From Gemmatimonadota bacterium (GTDB lineage: Bacteria; Gemmatimonadota; Gemmatimonadetes; Longimicrobiales; Gaopeijiaceae), in assembly GCA_028873825.1 (NCBI GenBank), contig JAPPNM010000177.1, positions 4,212 to 68,211 of the forward strand: DNA of 64,000 nucleotides. Reading direction: 5' to 3'. A program made the translations under genes and the position numbers. Below are positions 10,856-39,496 of the stretch, one piece after another; position 1 is the first letter of the stretch, and each line of letters starts with the position of its first letter. Under the pieces are notes generated by a model. It was not told the DNA's origin. It worked only from the letters and a program-made list of their open reading frames with translations, and did no database searches.

Positions 10856-10950
10856 GCGATCAGTCAGCCAACGAACACGGCAGTCCGGTGACATTCCGGT
10901 TCTCGAACATCGGCGCGCAGCCCTTCCGAGGTCCCTTGGGGAGCACATAG
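10852..10950 (+). pseudogene. 32-codon stub resembling the N-terminus of the following ATPase
   Basis: MSDQSANEHGSPVTFRFSNIGAQPF... compared with ...ASAVTFRFANLGPVREA of the 10952 gene. ATGA overlap with the preceding gene. TAG at 10948-10950. Confidence 0.45.
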
Positions 10951-10951
10951 A

Positions 10952-12412: not shown

Positions 12413-12432
12413 GGATGATTCCCGAAACGCAA

Positions 12433-12462
12433 GAGCCCCGAGGACGAAACGCCTCGGGGCTC
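12433..12462 (+). terminator. GC-rich hairpin after the ATPase gene
   Basis: GAGCCCCGAGG-ACGAAACG-CCTCGGGGCTC: an 11-bp perfect stem starting 21 nt after the stop. No clear U-tract follows. Confidence 0.45.
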
Positions 12463-12572
12463 CTACCTCAGCGTCTTGCTGCGCCCGAAGGCGTGTGCAG
12501 TAGAGGACGACCTGAGGAATTACACCAGGAGCATCGTCGATTCCCGCTCAGGACGCAACTCGCGGAGCTGCG

Positions 12573-13286
12573 ATGCTATCCATCGGAAGCCTTCGAAGTG
12601 CCCTCTCGGCGGAGCGGCTGGGTGCCTACGTCCGGCCAGGGGACACCGACGAAGTGGACAGCGTGGCCAGGTACCTGTGGAACTTGGCGCTGTGTAGCGC
12701 CCTCCAACCGGCGCTCCACATCCTTGAGGTCACCGTCCGGAACCACCTCTTCAAGGTTTCCAGAAGGATCGTGGATGAGACCACGCTCAGTTTCGACAGG
12801 ATTCCTTGTTGGCTCGACGCACGACCCTCGCTCCTTGCCGAACGCGAGCGTCAGGCCGTCGAGGAGGCGAAGGCCACGATCGAGATGCGGGGGAGTCCGA
12901 TGACCGAGGGACGGCTGGTTTCGGCACTGGGGTTTGGTTTCTGGGTCAGCCTGTGCAAGAGGCCGTACGAGCAGGGGCGCACTGTCGGGCCGCGTCTTTG
13001 GCCCGGACTGGCGAGGAAGGGATTTCCGCATCTGCCCAAACCGATGCGGACACGCAGTCAGGTATTCCACGCCTTGGATCCGCTCCGCGACCTGCGTATC
13101 CGCGTCTCGCACCATCAAGCCGTCCGGGACCGGAGGCTCGCGCGAAGCCATCAGGACATCCTCGACACCATTGCCTGGATCAACCGCGATCTGGCGGCAA
13201 CGCTAGAGGCACACTCGCCGCTCCCGGCAATACTCGGCAAGGGCGTGGCCGGCTTCCGGGCTCAGGCCGAGGCGATCATCAGGTGA
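12573..13286 (+). CDS. Abi_2 (AbiD/AbiF-like) abortive-infection family protein
   Basis: Contains LSAERLGAYV, ARYLWNLALCSALQPALHILEVTVRNHL, GFGFWVSL and DLRIRVSHHQAV. This is the pattern recalled for Pfam Abi_2. Confidence 0.7.
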   Translation: MLSIGSLRSALSAERLGAYVRPGDTDEVDSVARYLWNLALCSALQPALHILEVTVRNHLFKVSRRIVDETTLSFDRIPCWLDARPSLLAERERQAVEEAKATIEMRGSPMTEGRLVSALGFGFWVSLCKRPYEQGRTVGPRLWPGLARKGFPHLPKPMRTRSQVFHALDPLRDLRIRVSHHQAVRDRRLARSHQDILDTIAWINRDLAATLEAHSPLPAILGKGVAGFRAQAEAIIR

Positions 13287-13300
13287 CCTCGGAACCTCGA

Positions 13301-13570
13301 ATGACCAGGGTCACCGCCACGGAACTGCGGGTCGCGATCTCCGACCTCCTCGACCGCGTGGCCCGTCACGGCGAGCGGGTTGTGGTCGAGCGGTATGGGA
13401 AGCGGGTGGCCGCCCTCGTCAGCCCGGAGGACATCGAGCTGCTGGAAGCAATCGAGGACCGCGTGGACATCGAGGCGGCCCTGCAGGCGCTGAGGGAGCC
13501 CGGTCGGCGGAGTTGGCCCAAGGTGAAGGCCGAGTTGGCTCCGCATCGCCCTGAGGGTGAGCGACGATGA
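13301..13570 (+). CDS. Phd/YefM-family antitoxin-like protein (no cognate toxin gene)
   Basis: MTRVTATELRVAISDLLDRVARHGERVVVERYGKRVAALVSPEDIELLEAIED... Starts 14 nt after Abi_2. Its stop overlaps the pglX ATG (ATGA at 13567-13570). Confidence 0.7.
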   Translation: MTRVTATELRVAISDLLDRVARHGERVVVERYGKRVAALVSPEDIELLEAIEDRVDIEAALQALREPGRRSWPKVKAELAPHRPEGERR

Positions 13571-16500
13571 CCCCCCTCCCCCCCGACCTCCGCACCCTCC
13601 TCGCCAGGGCCATCCAGCAGGCCAGGCGCGTCGGGGAATCAGGCGCCCGTCAAGCCCTCCAATCCCTCGCCGTGGACCGCGCCAGGCCTTTCGACTCCAT
13701 GTCGCTCGGCGACAAGTCGCTCCGCAACCGCCTCCGCATGCGCGGCCGCCAAGCTGGCGACCGCCGCGAGCGCCGGACCGGCACGCAGAACCTCGTCCAT
13801 CTCGCCCACGAAGTTGCATACGAGAACTGGCACCGGATGCTCTTCGCCCGGTTCCTGGCCGAAAACGGCCTGCTCCGCGATCCCGAACACGGGGTCGACC
13901 TGTCGCTGGACGACTGCCGGGACCTGGCCGAGGAAGAAGGCACCGACGCCTGGGATTTCGCGGGCCGGTGCGCCGGACACATGCTCCCGGAGATCTTCCG
14001 CGGCGACGATCCGGTGCTCGACCTGTCTCTGCCGCCGGAGACGCGGCAGGAGCTCGAAGGGCTGCTGGACGGGCTGCCCGAGGCCGTGTTCGCGGCCCCC
14101 GACTCGCTGGGCTGGACCTACCAGTTCTGGCAGGCCGAGCGGAAGGAGGAAGTCAACCGGGAGGTCAAGAGCGGCAGGAAGATCGGAGCGGACGAACTCC
14201 CGGCGGTCACCCAGCTCTTCACCGAGACCTACATGGTCCGCTTCCTGCTTCACAACACCATCGGCGCCTGGCGCGCGGGCAGGCTGCTGGCCGACCGCCC
14301 CGACCTGGCCGGGAGTGCCTATGACGAGGAAGAGCTACGGCAGCTCGCACGCCTCGACACCGCCGGCGGCTACGACTTCTCCTACCTGCGCTTCGTGCGC
14401 GGCGTCCGCGAGGAGGACGAGGACGACTCACGCACGGGCCCTTGGCGTCCGGCCGCCGGATCCTTCCCGGACTGGCCCCGCGACGCTTCGGCCCTCCGCG
14501 TGCTCGACCCCTGTTGCGGCAGCGGCCACTTCCTCGTCGAGGCGTTCGAGCTGCTCGTGCGCCTGCGCATGGCCGAGGAGGGCGTGCAGGCCGACGAGGC
14601 AATCCGCCGCGTGCTCGCGGACAACCTCTTCGGCCTGGAGATCGACCCCCGCTGCACACAGATCGCCGCGTTCAACCTGGCTCTCGCGGCGTGGCGTCTG
14701 GCGGGGGAGCCCATCGACCTGCCGCCGCTCAACGTGGCATGCGCGGGACTCGCGCCGAACGCGTCGGAGGCCGAGTGGCGGGAGCTTGCGGAGCGGGCCG
14801 AGGGCGCGACCGGACTGGCCGGGGACCGTGACCTCTTCGGGGAGGACCAATCGCTGGCGAGCGGTTCGCTCAAGGACGAGATGGCCGCGCTGCACAAGCT
14901 GTTCAGACGGGCCCCGGAGCTCGGATCGCTGCTGGACCCGGGTTCCGTGGGACGCGACCTCTTCAGCGCCGACTTCAAGTCCGTCGCGAAGCTGCTCGAC
15001 ATCGCGATTGGGCGGGAGCGGGGGGTCGCGGGACGCGACGAGCGCGCCGTGGCGGCCGCGGGGATGGCCCGGGCCGCGGAGATCCTGCAGGGGCGGTACA
15101 CGCTCGTCGTCACCAACGTGCCGTTCCTGGCGCGGGGGAAGCAGGGGAGCGGGCTGCGCACGTTCGCGGAGGCGCACCACGGCGACGCCAAGGGGGATCT
15201 GGCCACGATGTTCGTGTCGCGGATCTTCGGGTGGCTCGGCAAGGGCGGAACGCAGGCGGTCGTGTCGCCGCAGAACTGGCTGTTCCTGAAGACCTACCGG
15301 AAGCTGCGCGAGAGGTTGTTGAAGGGGCGGACGTGGAATCTGGTGGCCCGGTTGGGTCCCGGTGCCTTCGAGACGGTCTCGGGGGAGGTGGTCAATGTCG
15401 CACTCGATGTCATTTCGGCCGGGCGTCCGGATCGTGACTGGGAGATGGCGGGGGTGGACGTGTCGTCTCCTCGGGGGCAGCGCCAGATCAAGGCTGCCGA
15501 GAAGGGGGAGAGGTTGCGGGGGGCGGCGGGGGTGGTGATGGCGGGGCAGGGGGAGCAGGTGAGAAATCCGGATTCGGCCGTGTTGATGCGGCCGATTGGG
15601 GATCGGGTGTTATTAGGAAACGTGGCTCACGGTCACCAGGGCATCGCATCCGCCGACTATCCTTCCTTTGGCAGACTATTCTGGGAGATTCCAACGGATG
15701 GCGAGACGTGGGTGTTCCAACAGAGCACGGTCAACGATACTACGGATTTCGGGGGACGAGAGCATGTCCTGCACTGGACGGGCGTCGCAGAAGTTGCCGA
15801 ACGACAAGTCGCACCTGGCGGCCGTAAAGCGGTACGTATACGAGGGGGCGGGATTTGGAGCCGTGAAGGCATCGCCGTCTCCCAGATCGGGCAGCTCCCC
15901 GTAACCCGTTACACCGGGGAGAAGTTCGACAACAACACGGCTGCGCTCGGCCCCCTCGCCGAAGACATCCTCCCCGCCGTCTGGTGCTTCTGCTCCTCGC
16001 CTGACTACGCAGCCGCAGTCCGTGAGATCGACCACGCGCTGAAAGTCACTAACGCGACCCTCGTCAAGGTCCCCTTCGACCTTGAACACTGGAAGCAGAT
16101 CGCCGCCGAGCAATATCCGCACGGCCTCCCGGAACCCTACTCCGACGACCCCACGCAGTGGATCTTCCACGGCGACCCGTGCCGTAGCGTCGTGTGGAAC
16201 GAAGAGACCAAACGCACCGACCACGCGCCCCCTCGCATTGACGCCACCGTTCTCCATGTCGCCGTCGCCCGCCTCCTCGGCTACCGCTGGCCCGCCGAAC
16301 TCGACCCCGACATGCGTCTCGCCTCCGAGCAGCGCGATGTCGCCGACGACTGCCGGGCGTTCGACGACTTCGCCGATCCCGACGGCATCGTCTGCCTGCC
16401 CGCCGTCCGTGGGGAACCGCCCGCCGCCGACCGTCTCCGCTCTCTGCTGGCCTCCGCGTACGGGGACGAGTGGTCCGCCGCCACCGAGCGCGCCCTGCTG

Positions 16501-17226
16501 ACGGCCACCAGCCCCAAGCGGCCCAAGTCATTGGAGGACTGGCTCCGCAACCGTTTCTTTCAGGAACACTGCAAGCTCTTCCACAACCGTCCCTTCCTCT
16601 GGCACGTCTGGGATGGCCGCAAGGACGGCTTCCACGCGCTCGTCAACTACCACCGGCTCGCTGGGCCAGAAGGCCAAGGCCGCCGGACCCTGGAATCCCT
16701 CACCTACGCCTACCTCAACGAGTGGATTGAGCGCCAGCGCGCGGAAAGCGAGGAGGGAACACCCGGAGCGGACGGACGCGTAGCGGCCGCACTCGACCTC
16801 CAGCAGCAACTCCAGCGCATCCTCACTGGCGAGCCTCCGTGCGACATCTTCGTGCGCTGGCGACCGCTGCACGGCCAAGCCATCGGCTGGGAGCCCAACA
16901 TCAACGACGGAGTGCGCCTGAACATCCGGCCCTTCATGCGCGCGGAGCTACGCACGGGCGGCCGCGCGGGTGCGGGCCTGCTGCGGTGGAAGCCCAACGT
17001 CAAGTGGGGAAAGGACCGGGGCAAGGAACCTGAGTCACCGAGGCCACGCGACGACTTCCCTTGGTTCTGTCGCTGTCCGGGTGGCGGTGGTGAGGCGGAG
17101 CGGATCGACTTCCGGGCCGCGCTCGACGCCGACTTTGATGGGAATCGCTGGAACAATCTTCACTATTCAGCGTCGTGCAAGAACGCGGCTCGACAACGGT
17201 TAAGTGACCAAGGAACAACATCATGA
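13567..17226 (+). CDS. pglX: BREX adenine-specific DNA methyltransferase PglX
   Basis: 1219 aa. SAM motif I VLDPCCGSGHFLV. Catalytic motif IV-like VVTNVPFLARG. N-terminal ...EVAYENWHRMLFARFLAENGLL. Position between brxC and pglZ. Confidence 0.9.
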   Translation: MTPLPPDLRTLLARAIQQARRVGESGARQALQSLAVDRARPFDSMSLGDKSLRNRLRMRGRQAGDRRERRTGTQNLVHLAHEVAYENWHRMLFARFLAENGLLRDPEHGVDLSLDDCRDLAEEEGTDAWDFAGRCAGHMLPEIFRGDDPVLDLSLPPETRQELEGLLDGLPEAVFAAPDSLGWTYQFWQAERKEEVNREVKSGRKIGADELPAVTQLFTETYMVRFLLHNTIGAWRAGRLLADRPDLAGSAYDEEELRQLARLDTAGGYDFSYLRFVRGVREEDEDDSRTGPWRPAAGSFPDWPRDASALRVLDPCCGSGHFLVEAFELLVRLRMAEEGVQADEAIRRVLADNLFGLEIDPRCTQIAAFNLALAAWRLAGEPIDLPPLNVACAGLAPNASEAEWRELAERAEGATGLAGDRDLFGEDQSLASGSLKDEMAALHKLFRRAPELGSLLDPGSVGRDLFSADFKSVAKLLDIAIGRERGVAGRDERAVAAAGMARAAEILQGRYTLVVTNVPFLARGKQGSGLRTFAEAHHGDAKGDLATMFVSRIFGWLGKGGTQAVVSPQNWLFLKTYRKLRERLLKGRTWNLVARLGPGAFETVSGEVVNVALDVISAGRPDRDWEMAGVDVSSPRGQRQIKAAEKGERLRGAAGVVMAGQGEQVRNPDSAVLMRPIGDRVLLGNVAHGHQGIASADYPSFGRLFWEIPTDGETWVFQQSTVNDTTDFGGREHVLHWTGVAEVAERQVAPGGRKAVRIRGGGIWSREGIAVSQIGQLPVTRYTGEKFDNNTAALGPLAEDILPAVWCFCSSPDYAAAVREIDHALKVTNATLVKVPFDLEHWKQIAAEQYPHGLPEPYSDDPTQWIFHGDPCRSVVWNEETKRTDHAPPRIDATVLHVAVARLLGYRWPAELDPDMRLASEQRDVADDCRAFDDFADPDGIVCLPAVRGEPPAADRLRSLLASAYGDEWSAATERALLTATSPKRPKSLEDWLRNRFFQEHCKLFHNRPFLWHVWDGRKDGFHALVNYHRLAGPEGQGRRTLESLTYAYLNEWIERQRAESEEGTPGADGRVAAALDLQQQLQRILTGEPPCDIFVRWRPLHGQAIGWEPNINDGVRLNIRPFMRAELRTGGRAGAGLLRWKPNVKWGKDRGKEPESPRPRDDFPWFCRCPGGGGEAERIDFRAALDADFDGNRWNNLHYSASCKNAARQRLSDQGTTS

Positions 17227-20200
17227 CCTTTCGAGATCAACGTCATGTCCATCGGATTTGCGAAGCCCTTTGGCGTCGTTCCGGCGCGGGTGCGTCGGTC
17301 ATGGTCGGGAGCGGGTTTAGCCGGAACGCACGTGCGTTGCGCCCAGGCTCGGACTCGTTGCCCATGTTGGCCGAGATCGGGCGGGCCCTATCCGCTGAGC
17401 TGTATCCCAACGCTACCACCAATCAAGAGATACCCCCGGAGCGACTCTTGAGATTGGCGCAGGCATACCAAGCCGAATTCAAACCCACCGGGTTGCACGC
17501 AGCACTCAGGACATTGGTGGCGGACGATGACTTCACGCCAGCCACTGCCCATGAGCGACTCCTTCGACTGCCGTGGGCCGATGTGTTTACCACCAACTGG
17601 GATACACTACTGGAACGTGCAAGCGAGACCGTTAGGGACCGTGTCTACACTATCGTCCGAAGCAAGCACGACATTCCTGGAGGAGCCCGGCCACGCATCA
17701 TCAAACTCCACGGGTCCCTTCCCGATTCCGCCCTCGTCCTAACCGAAGAGGACTATCGAACCTATCCTACCAAGTTCTTGCCCTTTGTGAATACCGTACA
17801 ACAGGCAATGATGGAGACGACATTCGTCCTAATTGGCTTTTCGGGCAATGATCCTAACTTCCTTCATTGGTCAGGTTGGGTTCGTGACCACCTCGATGAA
17901 GCTGCGCTGAACATCTATCTCGCTGGATTACTGAACCTGTCGCGCCCCGAGCGCCAGATGCTCCGAGATCGCAACGTAGTTGCCATCGATCTCGCGTTGC
18001 ACCCACGAGCAGACGAGTGGCCCGATGGCCTTCGTCATGAGTACGCCACAAAGTGGATTCTCTCAGCGCTCGAATGCGGACAACCCTACAACATATCGAA
18101 ATGGCCTACGCCTCGGCCTGCGACATTCTGTTCCGAAGAGGATCCTCTACTCGATCCGATCATCCGAAACGTGTCGGCAGAACCACGCAGGGAACCCTCG
18201 GAGTCGCCACGGGAGATACCTTCGGACGAGCGCTTGATCGCCGTCAAGAAGACTCTTGACATTTGGAAGTACAACCGGGACCTTTTTCCGCGCTGGTTGG
18301 TGGCTCCGGGGCGAGTGCGAAGTGAAGTATGGTATTCCACTGAGCGCTGGATGTCTTTCGTCGTGCAGGAGCTGACGCAATTGGCCGCTCTGGAACGCCT
18401 GACCGCGATTCGCGACATCATCTGGCGGTACGAGCTGACCCTTGAGACAATCCCGGATGAACTTCACGCCGCCGCGGAGGCGGTGCTGAGATCCATCGAC
18501 TGTACAGGGCGGACGGTTGAAGGGATTCGCCCAGATGACGTGGATTGGAGCGCGACTCGTGGGGCGTGGCAGGAGGTGACCCTCGCTCTCTTGACCGCTG
18601 CCAGATACCGACTCGACGGTGCCGCTTTCGAGAAGCACCTCAACGCAGTGCAGCCCATTCTGGACGATGATGTGGAGGCAGCCCATCGTGTGAATCATGA
18701 ACGCTGCCTGTGGGCGCTGTGGGCCTTGGACCATGCGACAGTCGGCGAACGGTTAGATGCATGGAGGACTGACGAAGGCGATTCCGCTTGGGCGATGCGC
18801 AAGAGCGCCCTCCTGAGAGAGATTGGACGCAAGGAGGATGCTGATCGCTTGACTATGCGCGTCGTTGAGCGGATCAGAGCGACTCGAGATGGCCCTGGCG
18901 ATCTTGGTGGTCGGTCACGTGAAGGATGGGCGCTATGGAGTCTGGTCGAGACGTTTGCGTATGATGGCAGCTTTCAAACCCGATGGGATAATGTCCAAGC
19001 ACGATGGGATGAGCTCGCGGTCGTCAAGTGCAATCCGTATCCCGACGTCCGTAACCTCAGCGATCAGTTGTCGACCGATCGGCGCGAAACTCGGGTCCCG
19101 GCTTTCGACCTCGGAATGCGTCCGACAGAGTCGCACACGATGCAGATGGTACGTCCGCCCTCTGCATCGCGGGGCATTCGACTGACCGAGGTCGCGGGTG
19201 TCGCCCCTACGACTGGTGTGCGGACGGTCGCGGGCGGCTTGGTGAAGCGGGCTGCCGAAGCACTGATCTCCGATGATGCCACCCTTGGAATGCGTCAGAT
19301 GATCCGCGTCGCCGAATCGGGCAACGACAAGGCGCTGAGGCGTGTGCTGACCCGTCCACGAGTGGCTGCGCTTACTGCTGCGAGCGCACGAGCACTGTCT
19401 CGCGATGTTCAGATCGCATTGAAGAACTCAGTATCGGATATTCGGACCACCAGAGACGAAACCCGATTCAAAGCGGTGAGGCACACGAGCGTCGCCATGG
19501 AGTCATTGTCACGGCTGGTGCTGCGACTGGAGCCTGGAGCGGCTCTCTCGATCTTTGACCGTGCGCTTGGCCTCTATCGGGACACGTCGGTGATGGAGTG
19601 GATTCAGCTGCACGGATCACTGCGTAACCTGTTGAGGAGAAGTTGGGAGACTCTTGACGACGAACAGCGCACGGAGCGAATACTCGATGTTCTTGAGACG
19701 CCGATCGTCGGGCTCGACGGGTATGCGAGTGCCGGTGATCACTGGCCTGATCCCAGTGAGATCCTGTCGGAGGATCTTTCGCCAGTGCGTTCTGAAGAGA
19801 ATGAGAATCGATGGAACTCAGTGGTGGCCACGTTGATTCGAGGGTCGAGCGCCGAGGGGCAGGTACGTGAACGGGCAGCAGTCAGGCTTGCCAAGATCGC
19901 GTTGTGGGGTCGCCTTGCGAAGACAGAGACGGAGAGAGTCGCTGAGGCTATCTGGGGAGTCGCAGCGGATGAAGAACAAGCGCTTCCAGATGGCACGTCG
20001 CTGCACGACTATGCCTTTATTCTGCTTCCCGAGCCCAAGGTTGGCGTTGGAAGAGCGCGCTTTGGGCGAAAGTGGCTGTCGGGGGATGTTGCCAATGTGC
20101 GGCTTGGCGGCGAGGTCGGCCACAAAGATTCGACTAGGGCAGACGACATTCTGTGGCAGGCGGGCATGTCCGTTGCGTTCGTACGTCGTCACGGGAGAAC

Positions 20201-21050
20201 GTTGGATCTGACCAATGAGGAGAAGGATTATCTGATCGGAGTGATTGATCATTGGTCACGGACTAGGGCTCCCAAGCCTTCGGTAGTGATTCCAGAGTTC
20301 TTTAGAGATTTGCGGACACGATCGATCTGGGATGCGTGCCGTGGGTTGCGGTGGCTTTTGACTGAGATTCGGATTCCCAATGGTCTTGCGGAGAGACTAT
20401 ATGGGCAAGTGCCGGAGTTGATCGATAGCGGGATTTCAGCGTACGGCATCCTTCCGGGCATCGACAATGTAGACGAGGATCTGCGTGAGGACATTGCGTT
20501 GCTTATGTCAACCGGATTGGCATCGGACGATCGCAAGATGGGGGAGAGCGCGATGTGGTCATTGCACTGTTGGTTGCGGTTCGCGTCAGAGTCGGCGCTT
20601 GACTTCGTCGGTCCCCCACAGCACTTGATTCGGGAAATTGGGGTTTCGGTGGCCACGAGGCGGCGAACGGTACTGGGAGAGGCGCTCCACGCGGCGAAGT
20701 GGATCTTTGAAGACGGCAGTGAAGAAGAGCGAGACGCGATCCGCGACTTGGTGCTGAAGGGCTTGGGCTACCTCGCCGAAGAGTTGCGGTACGATCGCGA
20801 GGACCCGCTCGATGAGAAACTCGATGTTCCGCTCGCACGGTGGCGCAGCATCCAAGTGGCGCGAGCGATGGCCGGGCAGGGTTTGGGCGGGCATCCCGTG
20901 GTCAAGCGGTGGTTGCAGTTGGGAATGGATGACCCGCTACCGGAAGTACGACGTGTCGCGAACAGGAGGCGGGAGGGTGATGCGATGGTCGAAGTGGCCG
21001 GTGCAGATGGGCGACATGAGTTCGCCGACGAGGGTGGGGCCGATGCCTAG
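17223..21050 (+). CDS. SIR2_2-domain protein with about 1000-aa helical C-terminal region (DSR-like candidate NADase effector)
   Basis: Contains VMVGSGFS, FTTNWDTLLERA, IIKLHGSL and LIGFSGNDPNFLHW within the first 260 aa. HEAT-like DDPLPEVRRVA near the C-terminus. The ATG overlaps the pglX stop (ATGA). GC is visibly lower than in the flanking genes. Confidence 0.8.
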   Translation: MTFRDQRHVHRICEALWRRSGAGASVMVGSGFSRNARALRPGSDSLPMLAEIGRALSAELYPNATTNQEIPPERLLRLAQAYQAEFKPTGLHAALRTLVADDDFTPATAHERLLRLPWADVFTTNWDTLLERASETVRDRVYTIVRSKHDIPGGARPRIIKLHGSLPDSALVLTEEDYRTYPTKFLPFVNTVQQAMMETTFVLIGFSGNDPNFLHWSGWVRDHLDEAALNIYLAGLLNLSRPERQMLRDRNVVAIDLALHPRADEWPDGLRHEYATKWILSALECGQPYNISKWPTPRPATFCSEEDPLLDPIIRNVSAEPRREPSESPREIPSDERLIAVKKTLDIWKYNRDLFPRWLVAPGRVRSEVWYSTERWMSFVVQELTQLAALERLTAIRDIIWRYELTLETIPDELHAAAEAVLRSIDCTGRTVEGIRPDDVDWSATRGAWQEVTLALLTAARYRLDGAAFEKHLNAVQPILDDDVEAAHRVNHERCLWALWALDHATVGERLDAWRTDEGDSAWAMRKSALLREIGRKEDADRLTMRVVERIRATRDGPGDLGGRSREGWALWSLVETFAYDGSFQTRWDNVQARWDELAVVKCNPYPDVRNLSDQLSTDRRETRVPAFDLGMRPTESHTMQMVRPPSASRGIRLTEVAGVAPTTGVRTVAGGLVKRAAEALISDDATLGMRQMIRVAESGNDKALRRVLTRPRVAALTAASARALSRDVQIALKNSVSDIRTTRDETRFKAVRHTSVAMESLSRLVLRLEPGAALSIFDRALGLYRDTSVMEWIQLHGSLRNLLRRSWETLDDEQRTERILDVLETPIVGLDGYASAGDHWPDPSEILSEDLSPVRSEENENRWNSVVATLIRGSSAEGQVRERAAVRLAKIALWGRLAKTETERVAEAIWGVAADEEQALPDGTSLHDYAFILLPEPKVGVGRARFGRKWLSGDVANVRLGGEVGHKDSTRADDILWQAGMSVAFVRRHGRTLDLTNEEKDYLIGVIDHWSRTRAPKPSVVIPEFFRDLRTRSIWDACRGLRWLLTEIRIPNGLAERLYGQVPELIDSGISAYGILPGIDNVDEDLREDIALLMSTGLASDDRKMGESAMWSLHCWLRFASESALDFVGPPQHLIREIGVSVATRRRTVLGEALHAAKWIFEDGSEEERDAIRDLVLKGLGYLAEELRYDREDPLDEKLDVPLARWRSIQVARAMAGQGLGGHPVVKRWLQLGMDDPLPEVRRVANRRREGDAMVEVAGADGRHEFADEGGADA

Positions 21051-22812
21051 ATCCCGCCGCGATGTTGAAGGACTTCTGGACCGGCTCGACGAGTTTCCCG
21101 CCCACGACCTCGAGTTCCAGAACCTCGACTTCAAGGAATGGGATCCCTGCCGCCTGAACCAATCGGTGCGATCCGCCGTGACCTCCGCCGTCTGCATGGC
21201 CAACGGCGGCGGTGGAACAGTGGTCTTCGGCGTCGCCGACAAGGTGGTAGGCCGCGACCGCGCGATCGTCGGCGTCCCGCCTGAAGTGTCGGTCAACCGC
21301 CTCAAGCTGGCGGTTCACGACGGAACGGATCCGAAGCTCACGCCGGTCTTCGAGGAACTCATGGTACCGGAAGGGACTGGACGCCTGATCCTCATGCGCG
21401 TTCATCCCGGGATCCCCCCCTACACGGATACCGCCGGTCGCGGCACGGTTCGGGTCGGCACGGACTGCAAGCCGCTGACCGGAACGATGAGGAGAAAGCT
21501 CCTCGAAGAGTCCGGAGAGAACGACTACACGGCGGTGACCATCGACGCTCCTCTTCCCGGGTTGATATCCCCCGCGGCCATGGAGACGCTTCGCGAGGCC
21601 GCGAAGTTGGACAGGGCGCCCCCTGACCTGCTTCGGCTTGGCGACACCGATCTGCTGCGCGCGATCGGCGTGATCCGCGACGGCAGGCCCACGCGGGCGG
21701 CGGTCCTTCTCGCCGGCTCGCCCGACGCCGTCCGCGACCATGTCCCCAGCTTCCTTTGGACCCACCTCCGAATGTCGTCGGACACCGAGTACTCCGACCG
21801 CGCCGACGGCCACCACGCAATCCCGGTCGCCCTGTCCCGCCTCCTCGACCGGATCATGGCGAACAACCTGATCGAGACGGTGCGTCGCGGAGTCTACCAC
21901 TTCGAGTACCGAACGTACCCGAAGACGGCTCTTCGAGAGGCCCTTCTCAACGCACTGTGCCACGGTGCCTTTCGTGTCGCCGGCCCGAGGATCGTGAGGC
22001 AGTATGCCGACCGAATCGAAATCTCCAACCCCGGTGGTCTGATCGGCGACATCACGCCGGACAACATCCTCCACCACGCGCCTGCGGCTCGGAATCCGTG
22101 CCTCGTCCAGGCCCTGGTGCGTCTCCGCCTTGTGAATCGAAGCAAACTCGGAATGGAGCGGATGTACTCTGCGCTTCTCATTGAGGGGAAGCCGCCGCCC
22201 GAGATCGAGGAGGTCGGCGGATCCGTCCGGTTGACGTTTAGGGCTTCCTCCGTTTCACCCCGGTTCCGCGGCTTCGTGGGCGAGGAGGCGCGAAAGGAGA
22301 TCGTGCTCGGCGCGGACCAGCTGCTCCTCCTGCGACACATGGTCCGCCACGGCGAGATCGACAATCCCACCGCATCTCGGCTCTGCCAGAGGCGGGAGTC
22401 CGCCGTCGCCGCAGTGCTGGCCCGGATGGAATCGGAGCTGGGATACGTGGAACACAGAGGCAGCGGCCCGGGCGCGTACTGGATGCTGTCGCCCGAAGCC
22501 CATGCCCGCTTGGCGCCCGCGAACGACTTTCGCGAGGGACCGAAGGTCGTCTTCGGAGCGGACGGAACGGTGACCCACCGGGATCCGCACGGAGCCTGGG
22601 ACGGTCTCAAGGCGCGGGTGATCCGGGTGATCAGGCGATGCGCCGATACCGGTGCCGATCCCCTCGTCAACGCCGATGTCCGCCGGATCACCGGCCTGGA
22701 TCGCCATCAGGTCCGCCGCATGATCCATGAGCTCCGGGACGACGGCCTCGTCGTGATCGAGGGCCACGGGCGTGCCGCCAGATACCTCTACGCCAGCCCC
22801 GGGAGCGAATAG
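21043..22812 (+). CDS. COG2865/Schlafen-like protein (AlbA_2-like N-domain + HATPase_c_4 + C-terminal wHTH-like regions)
   Basis: The ATG at 21043 lies 8 nt before the SIR2 stop. Contains DLEFQNLDFKEWD and LREALLNALCHGAF. C-terminal ...RHQVRRMIHELRDDGLVVIEG. The ORF track start at 20812 is judged too far upstream. Confidence 0.65.
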   Translation: MPRSRRDVEGLLDRLDEFPAHDLEFQNLDFKEWDPCRLNQSVRSAVTSAVCMANGGGGTVVFGVADKVVGRDRAIVGVPPEVSVNRLKLAVHDGTDPKLTPVFEELMVPEGTGRLILMRVHPGIPPYTDTAGRGTVRVGTDCKPLTGTMRRKLLEESGENDYTAVTIDAPLPGLISPAAMETLREAAKLDRAPPDLLRLGDTDLLRAIGVIRDGRPTRAAVLLAGSPDAVRDHVPSFLWTHLRMSSDTEYSDRADGHHAIPVALSRLLDRIMANNLIETVRRGVYHFEYRTYPKTALREALLNALCHGAFRVAGPRIVRQYADRIEISNPGGLIGDITPDNILHHAPAARNPCLVQALVRLRLVNRSKLGMERMYSALLIEGKPPPEIEEVGGSVRLTFRASSVSPRFRGFVGEEARKEIVLGADQLLLLRHMVRHGEIDNPTASRLCQRRESAVAAVLARMESELGYVEHRGSGPGAYWMLSPEAHARLAPANDFREGPKVVFGADGTVTHRDPHGAWDGLKARVIRVIRRCADTGADPLVNADVRRITGLDRHQVRRMIHELRDDGLVVIEGHGRAARYLYASPGSE

Positions 22813-22885
22813 ATCGTGAGCGAGAATGTGATTGAGGACGGTCGAGGCCGGAATGAAGACGGGTTCCCCGTGAGCTTTTCTCAGC

Positions 22886-23160
22886 GGAAATGCGCGAGAA
22901 TCGCAAGAAATAGCATTTCACACGCATTGATTATCAAAAATGCGAACGAAATGCGATTATACACAGTTCCAGATACATTTCCCTCGCGAGATGCGAACGG
23001 AATGCGCGAATCGCCTTTTCGAGTCGCATTTCTACCCGCACTCTGCTGGAAATGCGACAATTCCGGCCTCCCGCACCCATTCTTGACTCATTTCTCGACT
23101 CAATCTCCGAGAAATGAGTCACAGAGTGCCGTTCCGATCCGTTTTCTGACTCATTTCCCG
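22886..23160. repeat. AT-rich intergenic repeat cluster (AATGCG-type motifs and TGACTCATTTC motifs)
   Basis: About nine AATGCG or CGCATT copies. ATGCGAACG(A/G)AATGCG occurs twice. Perfect 14-bp inverted repeat TGACTCATTTCTCG / CGAGAAATGAGTCA at 23085-23122, with a third direct copy at 23147-23160. Confidence 0.7.
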
Positions 23161-23171
23161 CGCGCCGGAAG

Positions 23172-24353
23172 ATGAACCTGAACGAATTTCGCGAGAGAAT
23201 CCGAGCCGGCGAGAGCGAGCGGCTGGAGTTCAAGCGCGAGGCGCGCGACCTCCGGGCGGTCGGCCGGGCCGTCTGCGCGTTCGCCAACTCGTCCGGCGGC
23301 ACGGTCGTCATTGGCGTGGACGACCGGGGCGGAATCGTGGGCGTGGACGAAGATCCGGACGGGCTGCAGGAACGCCTGAGCGGCTTTCTCCACACCGGAC
23401 TGAGTTCCCCCGTTTCGGCGAGGTGCGGCTGTCTGGAGACTCCCGCCGGCTGGGTGCACTGGATCAGGGTCCCCCACCAGCAGCGCGGGTTCGAGCCCAT
23501 GCGCCACAGGGGCCGCTACTGGGTGCGCCGCGGCAGGAGCAGCGTCGAGCCGTCGCCCTCCGGGCTGGAGGAGCTCCTCCAAGTCTTCGGGTTCGTAATG
23601 ACGGAGGACCAAGTGATCCCGTCGGCGGAGGAACATCACATCGACCTGGCCGTGTTCACCGCCCACCTGCGGGCCATGGGACTCAAGCCCGACGAGGGGC
23701 CCCAGCCTTCCATGACCGACGACCTTCGCAATCGCGGAGTGACCGCGGAACTGGACGGGGTCATGCGTCCGACCCTCTACGGCCTGCTAGCGTTCGGCAA
23801 GCATCCGCAGCAATACCCCCAGATGGGGAACTTCGTCGTGCGTTGCGCCGCCTACCTGGGCGACCACCAGGGATCGGAGGTCATTTCGGCCAGCGAGAGC
23901 CGGGGACGTCTGGAGGAGCAGGTGAATCGCGCGCTGGAGTGGGTCCGATCCTTCGGCTGGCGCGAGGAATACCGGGGTCTCTACCGCCGCAACGTGCCGC
24001 TGGTCCCCGAGGACGCCCTCCGCGAGGCGCTGGTGAACGCGGTCGTGCACCGGGACTACTCGATCACCGGATCGCCGGTGTCGCTGGACGTGCTGCGGGA
24101 CCGGGTTCTGGTGACCAGTCCGGGGGCTCTTCCGAATCACATGACCGAGGAGAGCGTGCGCGCGGGCGGGCGGCCCCGGTCCCGCAACGAGCTCATGGTC
24201 AACGCGATGGTCGTGGCCAGGTTGATGGAGAAGCGCGGGAGGGGATGGCTGCTGATGAGTGAGGCGATGGCGGAGTTCGATCTGCCCGAGCCGGAGATCG
24301 AGAACGATCCCGCGGGACGCACAGTGCGGGTGACGCTGAGGCGCGTGCCATGA
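23172..24353 (+). CDS. COG2865/Schlafen-like protein (AlbA_2 + HATPase_c_4)
   Basis: 393 aa. Contains GESERLEFKREA, AFANSSGGTVVIGVDD and LREALVNAVVHRDY. Confidence 0.75.
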   Translation: MNLNEFRERIRAGESERLEFKREARDLRAVGRAVCAFANSSGGTVVIGVDDRGGIVGVDEDPDGLQERLSGFLHTGLSSPVSARCGCLETPAGWVHWIRVPHQQRGFEPMRHRGRYWVRRGRSSVEPSPSGLEELLQVFGFVMTEDQVIPSAEEHHIDLAVFTAHLRAMGLKPDEGPQPSMTDDLRNRGVTAELDGVMRPTLYGLLAFGKHPQQYPQMGNFVVRCAAYLGDHQGSEVISASESRGRLEEQVNRALEWVRSFGWREEYRGLYRRNVPLVPEDALREALVNAVVHRDYSITGSPVSLDVLRDRVLVTSPGALPNHMTEESVRAGGRPRSRNELMVNAMVVARLMEKRGRGWLLMSEAMAEFDLPEPEIENDPAGRTVRVTLRRVP

Positions 24354-24360
24354 CACCTCG

Positions 24361-24393
24361 GGACGGCTTCCACGCGCTCGTCAACCACCACCG
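24361..24393 (+). repeat. 33-nt copy (32/33 identical) of an internal pglX segment (16623-16655)
   Basis: GGACGGCTTCCACGCGCTCGTCAAC(T/C)ACCACCG, compared base by base. Lies 8 nt after the stop of the 23172 gene. Confidence 0.85.
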
Positions 24394-24422
24394 ACACGCG
24401 GCACGTCGCCCGGAGAAATCCG

Positions 24423-24758
24423 ATGCCCAAGACTAGAGCCGAGATACTCGACGTGCTGGAACGCCTCGACGAGTGCGTGGCGGACGATCTCGAGGGCCAG
24501 CATCTCGACTTCAAGCAGTGGGATCAACGCAGCGACCGGGGCGCGCTGCGACAAATTGCTTCATTTCCTTCCCCGATCCGCAAGACGGGTGCGCATCGTG
24601 GGGCGCGAGACCGGACACGCGTTACCTGGCAGGCTCGTGATGGTGGAGCGGGCACCTGGGACCGCGGGAAATGGGACAAATCGGGACGGGTCGGGGCGTT
24701 CCTTGTCCCAATTCGCGCCGGATCGTTGGAAATGTATCAGCAGCGGATGATCCCATGA
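24423..24758 (+). pseudogene. stub ORF: the first 36 or so codons resemble the N-terminus of the 21043 COG2865 gene, the rest is unrelated
   Basis: ILDVLERLDECVADDLEGQHLDFKQWD compared with LLDRLDEFPAHDLEFQNLDFKEWD. The ORF stop overlaps the ATG of the next gene (ATGA at 24755-24758). Confidence 0.4.
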
Positions 24759-26440
24759 CCCCTCTCCTCTCCCCCGCCGAGCTCCAGACCGTCCTGTCCC
24801 GCGGCGAAGGCCAGTTCGTCGAGTTCAAGTCCGCGTGGGACCGCACTACTTCACCGCGCAAGCCCGTCGCGCGCCGCGCCCTGCGCGACAAGATCGCCGA
24901 TGCCGTCGCCGCCTTCGCGAACGCCGACGGTGGCCTGCTCTTGGTCGGAGTGGACGACGACGGCACCGCCACCGGGCACCGCTACCCAGACCATGTCGTG
25001 GACGACCTGTTCGCCGTCCCCGACCGCCGACTGACCCCCGCCGTCGACTGCCGCACGGCGCGCTTGTCGCTCGATTGCCACGAGATCCTCGCCTTCCAGG
25101 TCCCGATTGCCTCCGAAGCCGTCATGATCGACGGGAACAGCTTCCCGTATCGGGTCGGCGCCCGGATCATCCGGGAGCCGCAGGAGATCATCAACCAGCG
25201 GAAGCAGGCGTATCGCCTCGTCGGCTACGAGCAACGCTTCAGCCCGGAAGCGACTGTGGACGATCTGGACCTGGCGCTGGCCGAGTCCTTCCTGAAGGAG
25301 ACGCCGGTTGGGGACCGTCCCGTCCTCGATGCCCTCGACTACTACGGCCTCATCGAGATGGACGTACGCGACTGGAGGGTGACCAACGCCGCTCTCCTGC
25401 TCTTTGCGCGCCGCCCGGCGCTCCGCTGGCATCCCCGCGCGGGCCTCCGGGTGTTCCGCGTCGCAGGAACGGAGATCAGGTACGGGCGCCGGCGGAACGT
25501 GACGCAGATCGGGCGGGCGGATCCTCCGCTGGCCCTGGCCGTCCACGAGATAGTGGAGCTGGCGCGGCACCAGGTGCGCAGGTCCGAGAAACTGGTCGGT
25601 CTCCACTTCGAGGACATCACCGAGTACCCCCACTTCGCGTGGCAGGAATCGTTGGTCAACGCCATTGCCCACCGCGACTACGAAGTGCAGGGCCGCGAAA
25701 CCGAAATCTGGTTCTTCGAGGACCGGCTCGAAGTGTCGAGTCCGGGAGAGCTCCTTCCGCCCGTCACCGTGGACACGCTGCGAGAGGGCCACAGGGCTCA
25801 TGTGACCCGCAATCCGATGCTGGTCCGGGTTCTCGCCGACACGGAGATCATGCGGGACGAGGGGGAGGGGATCGTGCGGGTCTTCCGCGAAATGGCGAAC
25901 AGCTTTCTCCGCGAACCGGAGATGACCTCCGCGAACGGCCTGTTCACGATCACGCTTCGCAACGAGCCCGACTGGGAGGCACACGGACCGGGTTGGAGGC
26001 ACTTCGTCGACTGGCTTCGCGTCACGGACGATCAGAAGAGGATGCTACTCCTGCGGCCGTACGGGTTCACACAGGCCGACTATGAGCGGCTGAACACGAT
26101 GTCGCCCGAGGAAGCGGCTCGGCGGATCGCGGATCTGGTAAGCGGAGAACTCGTGATCGGCCTTCCCGCTCCAGACAATGTCGGGCCGATGTTCGTGGTG
26201 CGGCCGGACAAGGAAAAGATGGGCCTCTTCCTGAACGACCGGATCCTTAGGCTCCGGGAGCATTTCCGGAAGCAGCCCTGGCTCAAGAATGCCGACTATC
26301 GCGAGGTCTTCGACGTTGACCGGCGAAAGGCGACCAGGGAGCTCCGCCAGCTCGCGGAGGTCTTCGGTCTGCTGCGGATGGAAGGGACCCGCCGGGGTGC
26401 CCACTACCGCCCAACGTCCGCGCTCGGAGCGAGCTTATGA
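24755..26440 (+). CDS. COG2865/Schlafen-like protein (AlbA_2 + HATPase_c_4 + C-terminal extension)
   Basis: MTPLLSPAELQTVLSRGEGQFVEFKSAWD..., AFANADGGLLLVGVDDDG, and WQESLVNAIAHRDY. The start is chosen at the ATG at 24755 within ORF 24671..26440. Confidence 0.75.
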   Translation: MTPLLSPAELQTVLSRGEGQFVEFKSAWDRTTSPRKPVARRALRDKIADAVAAFANADGGLLLVGVDDDGTATGHRYPDHVVDDLFAVPDRRLTPAVDCRTARLSLDCHEILAFQVPIASEAVMIDGNSFPYRVGARIIREPQEIINQRKQAYRLVGYEQRFSPEATVDDLDLALAESFLKETPVGDRPVLDALDYYGLIEMDVRDWRVTNAALLLFARRPALRWHPRAGLRVFRVAGTEIRYGRRRNVTQIGRADPPLALAVHEIVELARHQVRRSEKLVGLHFEDITEYPHFAWQESLVNAIAHRDYEVQGRETEIWFFEDRLEVSSPGELLPPVTVDTLREGHRAHVTRNPMLVRVLADTEIMRDEGEGIVRVFREMANSFLREPEMTSANGLFTITLRNEPDWEAHGPGWRHFVDWLRVTDDQKRMLLLRPYGFTQADYERLNTMSPEEAARRIADLVSGELVIGLPAPDNVGPMFVVRPDKEKMGLFLNDRILRLREHFRKQPWLKNADYREVFDVDRRKATRELRQLAEVFGLLRMEGTRRGAHYRPTSALGASL

Positions 26441-26701: not shown

Positions 26702-29047
26702 ATGACGGAACACGGCACCCAGGGCTCCCCCCCCACCCCCCTCGACCACCTTGCCCGCTCCCTCCGCGCCCGCGCCTCGGTCCCGAGCGGCCAGGCCGCC
26801 CCCGCCTCCATTCTGTGGACCGACCCCGGAGCCGAATGGCGCGGACTCCTCCCGGAAGCGCTTGCTCGCATCCCCGAGCTGCTCGTCCTTGGCGACTACG
26901 CTCCAGACGACCGCACCGGTCCCGCGATCTGGCTGCGCTGCGTGGTGGACGGCACGATCGAAGTCCCCGGACTCCCCGCCGACGCCACCCCCATCCTATA
27001 CCTCCCCGGAGTCGAACGCGGCGAGCTGCGCGCCGGCGAGGAGTGCCCCGACCGGCTCAAGCCGCTCGTCGAGCTCATGTACCGCGGCGTCCTCTGGCAC
27101 AATCCCAAGGGCCTCGACTGGACGGTGACAGCGTTCCTGACCTCATCCGGCGGCCCGGATCTCGACATCGCCCCCGACCGGGGAACGGCAGCGGCGCTGC
27201 ACGGCGCCCTCGACCACATCGCCACCACCCCGGTCAGCCACCTGCGCGGCCACCGCCTCGATGCCGCCGACTTCAACCGCATGGCCGGAGTCGATGTGTT
27301 CCGCGATATCCTGCGCTGGATGGGCGACCCCGAGCGCATGCGATCCGGGCCGGACGAGAGCCGCTGGAACGCCTTCCGCGCGGAGTGCCGGAGCGATCTC
27401 CGGTTCGACCCCGAGACGGAGCCGGACGTGTCGGCCGGAGCCAGGCTCGGCGAGGGATCGGGCCCCTGGGCCAAGGTGTGGGCCCGGTTCACCGAAGCGC
27501 CGGATGCCTTCCCCGGCGTGCCCGAAGTGCTGGCTCGCAGCCGTCCCGCGGGCGAGCTGGCACTGGATCGGGAACCGTGGCCCGACCTCAACGCCGAGGA
27601 CGAGGAGGCGGTGCGGAGCGCGCTGGCCGGTCTTCCGGGCCTGTCCCATACCGATGCGTGCCGGGCGGTCGCGCGGCTGGAGGGAGATCACGGCCATCGC
27701 CGGCGCTGGGTCTGGGCACGCCTGGGACGGTCTCCGCTCGCCGAAGTGCTGAAGCCGCTGGCCCGGCTGGCCGGGATTGCCGACAAGGCCATCGGTGGTG
27801 CAAGCCCGGACGATGTGGCCGAAGTCTATGCCGAGCGCGGTTGGCTGGCGGACGCGGGCGCCCGAGAGGCTCTATCCCTGGCTCCCGCCGAGCACGAAGA
27901 GACGGTTGCCGCCGCAGTGCGCCACCTGCTCGAGCCTTGGCTGGAAGACTCCGCCCGCGCGTTCCAGTCGGCGGTGGATCGCCGGCCGCTCCCCTCCGCC
28001 GGTGACCAGCCGGCGGTCACGGCCGGCGAAGACGAATGCATCCTGTTCGTCGACGGCCTCCGCTACGAGCTCGGACGGTCGCTCGCCGAACGGCTGGAGG
28101 CACGCGGATGTCGCACGGAGACGCGCCGCCGTTGGGCCGCGATCCCTACGGTGACCGGCACCGCCAAGCCCGCCGTAACCCCGGTAGCGCGCGATGTCGC
28201 CGGGGACCGGCTCGGCTCCGACTTCCGTCCCGCCATGCGGGGCTCCGGCCGACCCGCCCTGGCCAAGGACCTGCGCAAGGCCACGGAAGGGCGGGGCTAC
28301 CAGATTCTCGGTTCGGGCACCCTGGATATCCCGCTGAACTCCGGTGCCCGCGGCTGGTTGGAGACCGGTGAGATCGACAAGCACGGTCACCACCACCGCG
28401 CGGCGTCGTTCGCCCGCCAGATCGAAGAGGAGCTGGACCGGCTGGCCGGCCGGATCGCGGGGCTGCTGAAGGCGGGCTGGAGTTCGGTCCGCGTCGTCAC
28501 CGACCACGGGTGGCTGCTGCTCCCCGGCGGCCTCCCGATGGTCACCCTGCCCAAACACCTCACCGAGTCCAAGTGGGCACGGTGCGCCGTCGTTTCGGCC
28601 GGCTCCACGCCGGACGCGCCTCTTCATCCCTGGCACTGGAACCCGCAGGAGTGGTTCGCCTCTCCACCCGGAATCGCCTGCTTCAGCCAGACGCCGGAGT
28701 ATGCGCACGGCGGCCTCAGCATCCAGGAATGCCTGATCCCGGACATTCGTGTCGAAGGGACGGCTGACGGGGGCGCGACCGCGAAGATCCTATCCGTCTC
28801 CTGGGTCCGCTTCCGCTGCAAGGTCGTCGTCGAGGCCCGGGGCGGCCCCGTCACGGCCGATCTGCGGCTCGGCGGTCCGACGGGCGAATCGGTCGCGTCC
28901 TCGCCCAAAGCCATCGACGACAACGGACGGGCCAGCCTGGTCCTTGCCGGCGACGAATACGAGAACGCCGCGCTGGTCCTCGTGGTTACCGATGCCGGCG
29001 GCCGCGTCCTCGCCCAACAACCGACCCGCAAGGGAGAGAACATATGA
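26702..29047 (+). CDS. pglZ: BREX alkaline-phosphatase-superfamily protein PglZ
   Basis: About 780 aa from the ATG at 26702. The upstream part of ORF 26573 lies in the AT-rich region and is not protein-like. Position between pglX and brxL. C-terminal half contains ILFVDGLRYELG...VTDHGW. Confidence 0.85.
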   Translation: MTEHGTQGSPPTPLDHLARSLRARASVPSGQAAPASILWTDPGAEWRGLLPEALARIPELLVLGDYAPDDRTGPAIWLRCVVDGTIEVPGLPADATPILYLPGVERGELRAGEECPDRLKPLVELMYRGVLWHNPKGLDWTVTAFLTSSGGPDLDIAPDRGTAAALHGALDHIATTPVSHLRGHRLDAADFNRMAGVDVFRDILRWMGDPERMRSGPDESRWNAFRAECRSDLRFDPETEPDVSAGARLGEGSGPWAKVWARFTEAPDAFPGVPEVLARSRPAGELALDREPWPDLNAEDEEAVRSALAGLPGLSHTDACRAVARLEGDHGHRRRWVWARLGRSPLAEVLKPLARLAGIADKAIGGASPDDVAEVYAERGWLADAGAREALSLAPAEHEETVAAAVRHLLEPWLEDSARAFQSAVDRRPLPSAGDQPAVTAGEDECILFVDGLRYELGRSLAERLEARGCRTETRRRWAAIPTVTGTAKPAVTPVARDVAGDRLGSDFRPAMRGSGRPALAKDLRKATEGRGYQILGSGTLDIPLNSGARGWLETGEIDKHGHHHRAASFARQIEEELDRLAGRIAGLLKAGWSSVRVVTDHGWLLLPGGLPMVTLPKHLTESKWARCAVVSAGSTPDAPLHPWHWNPQEWFASPPGIACFSQTPEYAHGGLSIQECLIPDIRVEGTADGGATAKILSVSWVRFRCKVVVEARGGPVTADLRLGGPTGESVASSPKAIDDNGRASLVLAGDEYENAALVLVVTDAGGRVLAQQPTRKGENI

Positions 29048-34223: not shown

Positions 34224-35085
34224 GTGAGCGCCCGACCGCGGCCGCCGGACTTCTTCAAGGACCTCACCGCCCGGATCCTGGCCGTTCTCAGGGAGGGCGT
34301 GGTTCCGTGGCGACGGCCATGGCGCTCGCTGACGCCGACCCGGTACACCGGATTCCCCGTTCACGGGAACCAACAGCCTCGTGCTGTGGCTCGCGGCCGA
34401 CTCGAAGGGCTACTCGAATCCGTTCTGGCTGACCAGGGCCCAGGGAAGCCGGTGCGGCGCGAAGGTCCTGGACAGCGAGGAGGGCACGCTGGTGCTGCGG
34501 CCGCTCCCGTTCTCGGTCCCGCAGCGGGCGGAGGGTGCCCGGCACCGTCCACGCATCCCGCTCATGGAAGCCTACCGTGTGTTCAACGGCGAGCAGTTCG
34601 ACCGGCTGCCGCCCAGGTTCCACATCGATGAGCAGGGTCCCGCTCCCGGTCCGGTAGACAGGATCGACGTCGCCGAACACTTCTTCGGCGCGGTCGGCGC
34701 GAAGATCGTGCCGGGCGGCGACCGCGCGGTCTACGATCGCGGCGGGGACATCATCAGAATGCCGATCTTCCCCAGCTTCGACGATCCGGTCCGCTACTAC
34801 GCCACGCTCGCGCACGAGGCCATCCACTGGACCGGCCACCACGGCCGGATAGGCCGCGAGTTCGGAGTCCGTTTCGGCGACGTGGCCTACGCCTTCGAGG
34901 AGATCGTGGCCGAGCTCGGCGCCTCCTTCGTCATGGGCGGTCTCGGCCTTCCCTGCCGTGCCGAACGGGACCACGCGCCATACATCGATCACTGGATATC
35001 GGTACTGGAGAATGACGAGAGGGCAATCCACCGCGCCGCCTCCCATGCGCAGCGGGCCGCTGACTATCTCGTCATCAGGACGGTT
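34224..35085 (+). pseudogene. ArdC-like antirestriction protein (ssDNA-binding N-domain + HExxH metalloprotease), frameshifted
   Basis: Frame 1: ...LREGVVPWRRPW...TGFPVHG. Frame 2, from about 34370: NSLVLWLAADSKGYSNPFWLTRAQ...LAHEAIHWTGH...YAFEEIVAELGASF...AADYL. A 1-nt frame change lies near 34355-34380. Confidence 0.6.
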
Positions 35086-39467: not shown

Positions 39468-39496
39468 TTGAACACGGGGTCGGCTTCCCGTATGAT
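39468..39496 (+). promoter_or_regulatory. sigma70-type promoter (TTGAAC-17 nt-TATGAT) for the 39612 gene
   Basis: Read directly. Lies about 115 nt upstream of the ATG. Confidence 0.45.

Follow-up and report, generated by a model that had tools for sequence, protein, structure and literature searches.

The BREX locus and its repeated pglX segment

The window analyzed here is a stretch of 64,000 nucleotides (nt) from contig JAPPNM010000177.1 (positions 4,212 to 68,211 of the forward strand; assembly GCA_028873825.1), which belongs to a sponge-associated Longimicrobiales (Gemmatimonadota) genome. It carries a type 1 bacteriophage exclusion (BREX) locus with nested cargo, and the core genes of the locus are ordered and lie on one strand (Table 1). 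The assignment to type 1 is based on full-length PADLOC matches to BrxC, PglX, PglZ and BrxL and on a weak Pfam match to BrxB at 5948-6502; brxA was not scanned for separately. A short segment of the BREX methyltransferase gene pglX occurs a second time as an isolated fragment in the cargo region between pglX and pglZ. The copy inside pglX is called R1, and the downstream copy is called R2. Comparison with related loci suggests that R2 is probably a leftover of a second pglX, and the evidence for this origin and for its alternatives is discussed below.

An initial annotation of this DNA described a near-perfect direct repeat of 33 nt, and the repeat is real. R1 (16623-16655) and R2 (24361-24393) have 32 of 33 bases in common, and the single T/C change replaces a tyrosine by a histidine. 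The similarity reaches 36/39 when it is extended to 16623-16661 and 24361-24399, and the longest perfect run is 25 nt. As annotated, R1 lies inside pglX (13567-17226); it is in frame, and its codons for DGFHALVNYHR correspond to about residues 1020-1030 of 1219. R2 lies 7.7 kb downstream; it has the orientation of R1 and keeps the reading frame of pglX. It begins 7 nt past the TGA of g8 (23172-24353), rather than the 8 nt first counted. The flanks of the two copies are unrelated, and the genes described between them are indeed present, namely the 3' end of pglX, a SIR2 gene (Dsr2-type, 17223-21050) and two COG2865 genes (21043-22812 and 23172-24353).

A match of this quality did not arise in any of 100 dinucleotide-preserving shuffles. 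When the entire genome (3.3 Mb in 183 contigs, 93% complete) was searched by BLAST with the R2 region, R1 was matched at E = 4.7e-9, and R1 and R2 proved to be the sole two copies. They are also the sole exact repeat of at least 18 nt that links pglX with the rest of the window.

In a short-read metagenome-assembled genome, such a repeat could in principle stem from chimeric joining through a shared k-mer, and the present genome is of this kind, with 183 contigs and a 25-mer that is present twice. However, a chimera through the repeat needs pglX context beside R2, and neither flank of R2 continues into pglX. A 977-nt contig of another assembly (L098, BBAY34_1069369, in the Joint Genome Institute (JGI) data set 3300000400) is 100% identical to window 23900-24876, which covers g8, R2, the sequence inserted behind it and g9. 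R2 and its surroundings are therefore not peculiar to a single assembly, although this contig may stem from the same or related raw data. An assembly artefact was rejected on the logic of the flanks and on the second assembly, and we consider it exceedingly improbable.

Table 1. Coordinates of the repeat copies, the insert and the BREX and cargo genes in the window
Feature	Position	Strand	Description
brxC/pglY	6540-10016	+	Type 1 BREX; full-length match to the PADLOC BrxC model, 1202 bits
pglX	13567-17226	+	Intact BREX adenine methyltransferase, 1219 aa; PADLOC PglX over residues 1-1213, 1464 bits; Pfam Eco57I, N6_Mtase and MmeI_Mtase
R1	16623-16661	+	Repeat copy inside pglX, 33 nt (16623-16655), 39 nt with extension; encodes DGFHALVNYHR(LA)
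Dsr2-type SIR2 defense gene	17223-21050	+	Start overlaps pglX stop; PADLOC Dsr2, full length, E = 6e-146; Pfam SIR2_2
g7	21043-22812	+	Schlafen/AlbA_2 + HATPase_c_4 (COG2865); ATG overlaps Dsr2 stop
g8	23172-24353	+	Second Schlafen/AlbA_2 + HATPase_c_4 gene; 95-96% identical to L006 and L004
28-codon open reading frame (ORF28), MTPRDGFHALVNHHRHAARRPEKSDAQD*	24350-24437	+	Starts at ATGA overlap with g8, crosses R2 in the pglX frame; stop overlaps next ATG
Joint	24354-24360	+	First four bases, CACC, match g9 codons 2-3 as placed right behind g8 in L006 and L004; collinearity with both ends here
Insert	24358-24754	+	About 395 nt, lineage-specific, missing in L006 and L004; flanked by CCATGACaCCT and CCATGACcCCT
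R2	24361-24399	+	Isolated pglX-derived fragment; 33 nt (24361-24393) at 32/33, 39 nt at 36/39
ORF111	24423-24758	+	Begins with ~105 nt from the 5' end of a g7-type Schlafen gene; other ~230 nt without homologue; stop overlaps g9 ATG
g9	24755-26440	+	Third Schlafen/AlbA_2 + HATPase_c_4 gene, 561 aa
pglZ	26702-29047	+	PADLOC PglZ, E = 2.5e-257; start as in the 781-aa gene call
brxL	29044-31107	+	PADLOC BrxL, E = 3.4e-277

A lineage-specific insert between two Schlafen-type genes

Two related loci, L006 and L004, are collinear with the window (pglX-Dsr2-g7-g8-g9-pglZ), and both are without R2 and without the whole of window 24358-24754. In these loci, the stop of g8 overlaps the start of g9 in an ATGA (...CCATGACACCCCTCCTC...). 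The window retains CCATGACACC of this junction and then runs straight into R2, which begins 3 nt beyond the end of collinearity. The native start of g9, CCCATGACCCCTC, returns about 395 nt past the joint. Relative to these two loci, R2 therefore marks the left end of an insert that is specific to this lineage and lies between two Schlafen genes. Between themselves, the two loci agree at about 100% over g8 and the initial 200 nt of g9, and at 60-90% in the flanks (equivalents of window 23000-24950), which indicates a very recent exchange of the g8-g9 segment.

The insert is a mosaic. It consists of the pglX piece of 33-39 nt, a stretch of 29 nt, about 105 nt of a Schlafen 5' end, and about 230 nt without a match. 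The Schlafen fragment is 77% identical to 21076-21145 in g7 and 75% identical to L004. In the 29 nt behind R2, a stop overlaps the next ATG as it does at the native Dsr2/g7 junction (GATGCCTAG at that junction, GATGCCCAAGACTAG in the insert). The right part of the insert holds the same position as the upstream regions of g9 in L003, L005 and L007. The insert itself was not found in 52 genomes of the same genus or in 300 genomes of the same order, where separate pglX and Schlafen pieces alone turned up.

The arrangement of reading frames raises the possibility that the segment is functional, either as a small translationally coupled peptide or as a cis element that regulates g9-pglZ-brxL. The frames of g8, ORF28, ORF111 and g9 are joined without a break by ATGA-type overlaps, and the right part of the insert takes the place that upstream regions of g9 take elsewhere. 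However, a collection of 5.8 billion proteins contained no homologues of ORF111 beyond identical proteins from this same population. The insert has no Rfam match and no promoter-like or terminator-like site, and its predicted RNA folding shows no excess of structure (z = 0.06). The segment is also missing from every relative sampled. A functional role is thus highly improbable.

Conservation of the repeated stretch

The near-identity of R1 and R2 has to be read against the conservation of this part of pglX. Among 30 relatives, the mean identity of R1 is 88%, compared with 66% for the whole gene. R1 is the fifth most conserved non-overlapping 33-nt window of pglX and the best in its 3' third, and 16 of the 30 relatives have the stretch within 3 mismatches. 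With 2-6 mismatches, the 33-mer is present in the pglX of more than 45 loci from several phyla. As a result, whichever pglX allele a fragment came from, it would hardly differ from R1 in this stretch. The similarity between R2 and R1 probably reflects the conservation of the stretch and not recent copying from R1. Foreign pglX genes match R2 at 31/33 in L013, L022 and L024, and at 33/35 in L024 when the upstream CG is counted. The codon preceding R2 is CGG (Arg), like that of L011 and L024, whereas the pglX of the window has AAG there. Every other genomic match to the repeat that was inspected sits within a full-length pglX ORF.

These comparisons bear on the alternative of a local origin, in which R1 served as the template for R2 when a break between g8 and g9 was mended by template switching or patch repair. 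No sequence matches R2 better than R1 does (36/39, E = 4e-9), and 32 positions are identical with only the T/C site as an exception. The pglX genes of other genomes fit R2 almost equally well, however, and the codon ahead of R2 is theirs rather than that of the local gene. Furthermore, identity between the adjacent Schlafen fragment and the local g7 is just 77%, and a local template is lacking for the other 230 nt, so the insert as a whole is not locally templated. A match of 32/33 beside a 77% fragment has a probability of about 2e-3 if both are copies of local genes of the same age (our own arithmetic). It is a poor fit to such copies, and it fits a diverged pglX. A local templated copy could possibly account for R2, but not for the rest of the insert, and we regard it as unlikely.

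Probable origin of R2 at a recombination joint

R2 is a fragment of a conserved gene that stands downstream of its intact version, has the same orientation and starts at a non-homologous joint, as befits a relic. On present evidence, it is probably a non-functional relic of a second pglX, either a displaced resident gene or a foreign allele, situated at a joint formed by illegitimate recombination within the variable cargo between pglX and pglZ. According to this explanation, DNA would have been exchanged between BREX loci. Homologous recombination would have taken place on one side, in a conserved BREX gene, and the other end would have been joined without homology, a process called homology-facilitated illegitimate recombination. 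The non-homologous join would have connected the first 4-10 bases of g9, placed behind g8 as in the relatives, to a pglX remnant starting at DGFHALVN(Y/H)HR. Later deletions may have shortened the pglX remnant, together with the Schlafen-type gene that followed it, to about 395 nt. The mechanism, and the assignment of resident and incoming sides, are inferred from the comparison of loci.

Several points weigh against this explanation. Among 300 genomes of the same order and 52 of the same genus, neither a donor nor an intermediate with a longer insert was found. Exact-pattern scans of genome and metagenome contig collections for the passage from the repeat into the sequence behind R2 were also empty, a null of no weight because the identical contig L098 was likewise not among their results. 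The match between PglX C-terminal tails and the 42 nt that follow R2 is no better than for codon-shuffled controls, and to regard R2 and this 42-nt tail as a pglX with an internal deletion is a conjecture. Two separate breaks are needed near both ends of a conserved 33-mer; detection accounts for part of this, yet a coincidence is left. The event may have run in either direction, with either side as the resident one. Finally, the in-frame chain of g8, ORF28, ORF111 and g9 could hint at selection rather than pure decay.

The proposed process has precedents. Type VI secretion system (T6SS) effector-immunity arrays arise by homology-facilitated illegitimate recombination (Kirchberger et al. 2017, PMC5361080), and the displacement of Rhs C-termini has been explained in the same way (Jackson et al. 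2009, as cited in PMC5361080). In these systems, as proposed for the window, a conserved gene is the homologous anchor, new modules arrive downstream, and old pieces are pushed downstream in the same orientation. Displacement of this kind yields direct repeats of a conserved internal segment without a recombinase. In contrast to the Rhs and T6SS cases, the relic in the window comprises just 33-39 nt and has no alternative C-terminal module or orphan immunity gene behind it. The anchor is the methyltransferase of a defense system, and the mechanism is deduced from locus comparison.

Absence of a breakpoint at R1

Direct repeats of about 33 nt that bracket cargo and leave the target gene intact are typical of integrative elements, including those that restore the 3' end of their target through duplicated attachment (att) sites. 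The initial annotation offered R1 and R2 as att-like sites or junction scars of an event that delivered the 7.7-kb block together with a replacement pglX 3' end. In its strict form, this proposal makes R1 and R2 the attL- and attR-like ends of a site-specifically integrated 7.7-kb cassette that carries a pglX 3' end, Dsr2 and two Schlafen genes. However, L006 and L004 hold the same block without a second repeat, and their block runs seamlessly into g9. The repeats are not at the ends of the inserted DNA, the true indel relative to these loci being 24358-24754.

The pglX sequence itself also argues against a cassette boundary. The initial annotation had proposed comparing the pglX segments downstream of 16655 among relatives, and this comparison gave no break in similarity at R1 in eight relatives, for which identity profiles in 100-nt bins are smooth across R1. 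The actual breaks in pglX identity lie at about 16100, at the end of the target-recognition region, and at the end of the gene. An analysis of informative sites showed the 3' third of pglX to be a mosaic with several switches, none of which is tied to R1 (Fisher P at R1 of 0.11-1.0), and a fine map gave no break at R1 either. L036 and L003 carry different cargo, yet they keep a homologous pglX 3' end at an identity equal to that upstream of R1, an outcome that the initial annotation had set as refuting a replaced 3' end. In addition, no displaced pglX 3' end lies behind R2.

No integrase, recombinase or invertase was identified in the block, in the rest of the locus or beside it when all genes between brxC and brxL, both included, and the adjacent ORFs were scanned with Pfam and PADLOC. 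A mobile-element signal came from one place only, about 10 kb downstream of R2, where part of a Mutator-family transposase domain is encoded. An att-like origin of the repeats is thus extremely improbable. The part of the proposal that stands is that R2 does sit at a recombination joint, within a few bases of where an illegitimate join is placed.

The predicted deletion product

The initial annotation also raised the possibility that the repeats are a substrate for RecA-type deletion that would switch BREX off. As a sequence prediction, its in-frame truncated PglX with the tail ...DGFHALVNHHRHAARRPEKSDAQD* is correct. Recombination between R1 and R2 would cut PglX after residue about 1030, producing a protein that ends ...DGFHALVN(Y/H)HRHAARRPEKSDAQD*, with the loss of Dsr2, g7 and g8. 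The fusion would remove the conserved C-terminal region of PglX. The equivalent region of the Salmonella protein, residues 961-1225, has residues required for the binding of DNA and of Ocr (PMC11341690), which counts in favor of a switch. Variation of pglX is also common among BREX systems (PMC11341690, PMC9881135), and this counts in its favor as well.

However, the deletion could not be undone, and Dsr2 and two Schlafen genes would be lost along with the end of pglX; such an event would therefore not be phase variation. The copies are 7.7 kb apart and share just 25 perfect bases, which is about the minimum, the minimal processing segment for RecA-dependent exchange in E. coli being about 23-27 bp. 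In Streptomyces, PglX switching depends on a homopolymer tract. The longest homopolymers in the pglX of the window are a short C6/C7 at codons 2-6 (13571-13584, right after the start, in MTPLPPD) and two G6 tracts. The hallmarks of phase-variable PglX are absent: the locus has neither a hypermutable tract that would act as a switch nor inverted repeats with silent pglX cassettes and a recombinase.

Documented PglX switching involves inverted repeats and a recombinase (PMC9881135). The BREX loci of Lacticaseibacillus rhamnosus and Brevibacterium casei, in which PglX undergoes phase variation by inversion, resemble the window in having repeated pglX segments in a type 1 locus and an altered PglX coding sequence. 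In those loci, however, the repeats are inverted, silent pglX cassettes and a neighboring recombinase are present, and the change is reversible (PMC9881135). The window has one short direct repeat and no recombinase, and an irreversible deletion is the sole possible outcome. R2 is missing from all relatives sampled, hence it is not part of a conserved design. A recurrent deletion switch is very unlikely, even though the predicted fusion is in frame.

pglX fragments and tandem pglX genes in related loci

The signature of a relic is not confined to the window. It recurs in related loci as a pglX tail in L005, as a 5' duplication in L004, and as tandem genes in L011, L024 and L027. In L005, the Dsr2-like gene (13624-17460) ends in ...HVAADAEFDGNRWNDLHDTGATKESAR..., which is the PglX C-terminal motif, and its pglX tail relic reads ADAEFDGNRWNDLH. 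Positions 17357-17395 of this locus match its own pglX at 13527-13565 in 33 of 39 bases (tblastn E = 3e-4). A pglX 3' fragment is thus present on both sides of the Dsr2-like gene. Other BREX-embedded Dsr2 genes keep just N/D-R-W at the place of this tail relic.

In L004, an inserted 332-aa gene of unknown function is enclosed by a duplication of the first 88 nt of pglX (about 30-54 codons); the extra copy lies 1.1 kb upstream, and the pglX behind the insertion is intact (10000-10162, 10120-11118 and 11108-14752). This arrangement is the 5' mirror image of the repeat in the window.

Three further Longimicrobiales BREX loci, L011 (9884-20383), L024 (2445-13645) and L027 (9974-19208), contain two tandem full-length pglX genes around cargo. 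The cargo is a UvrD-like helicase with a DUF2290 gene in L011 and L024, and GmrSD in L027. The pairs of L024 and L027 are 88-92% identical in the 3' 1.2 kb and divergent in the target-recognition middles, and the pair of L011 is 82% identical over its entire length. The second copy in L027 appears frameshifted. Such pairs could serve dual specificity, or recombination could act on them. The second pglX of L011 and of L024 is followed, right at its stop, by the start of a Schlafen-type gene. This would also be the layout of the window, provided that R2 is the remnant of a second pglX.

Taken together, these loci allow the tentative suggestion that type 1 BREX loci of Gemmatimonadota, including Longimicrobiales, may acquire cargo through homologous recombination on one side, with pglX as the anchor and with duplication of part or all of the gene. 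R2, the relic of L005, the duplication of L004 and the tandem genes might then be stages of one process. This wider proposal is considerably more speculative than the origin suggested for R2.

Other features of the locus

Proteins that combine Schlafen, histidine kinase-like and winged helix-turn-helix domains are BREX-linked auxiliaries tied to BREX core loci in at least 1017 taxa (PMC12839542). The genes around R2, namely g7, g8 and g9, resemble these auxiliary effectors in their Schlafen/AlbA_2 and HATPase_c_4 architecture. That work covers gene content, as opposed to pglX fragments or the turnover of cargo.

A second cargo slot of the locus lies between brxC and pglX (10013-13286). It contains a truncated Schlafen-family gene with the HATPase_c_4 part alone (10013-10855) and a PD-T4-4-like ATPase (10952-12412). 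The sole match of the partner of this ATPase (12573-13286) is a weak one to PADLOC PD-T4-5 (E = 8e-10). Downstream of the locus, the transposase domain mentioned above is part of a single ORF (34381-35865) that also has an ArdC-N domain and a zincin MPTase-PolyVal domain, a combination that suggests mobile-element debris. Farther on, the region 37685-43891 is dense in repeats of 200-600 nt with 72-89% identity in both orientations.

Implications for a proposed BREX cargo turnover

R2 itself is probably a small and ordinary recombination scar, without function, in a very recombinogenic defense locus. It also carries a caution: where a gene is most conserved, a short near-perfect repeat may be neither recent nor functional. 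Of more interest than the repeat is the pattern of relics and tandem copies of pglX that the comparison of loci brought out. R2 and the related relics and duplications may be markers of a pglX-pglZ space that turns over by recombination, with pglX as the homologous anchor. If this is true, the similar 1.2-kb 3' sequence of the tandem pairs could let recombination reshuffle BREX specificity without a dedicated recombinase. Recombination anchored in pglX would provide a concrete and testable route for the nesting of defense islands inside other defense systems.

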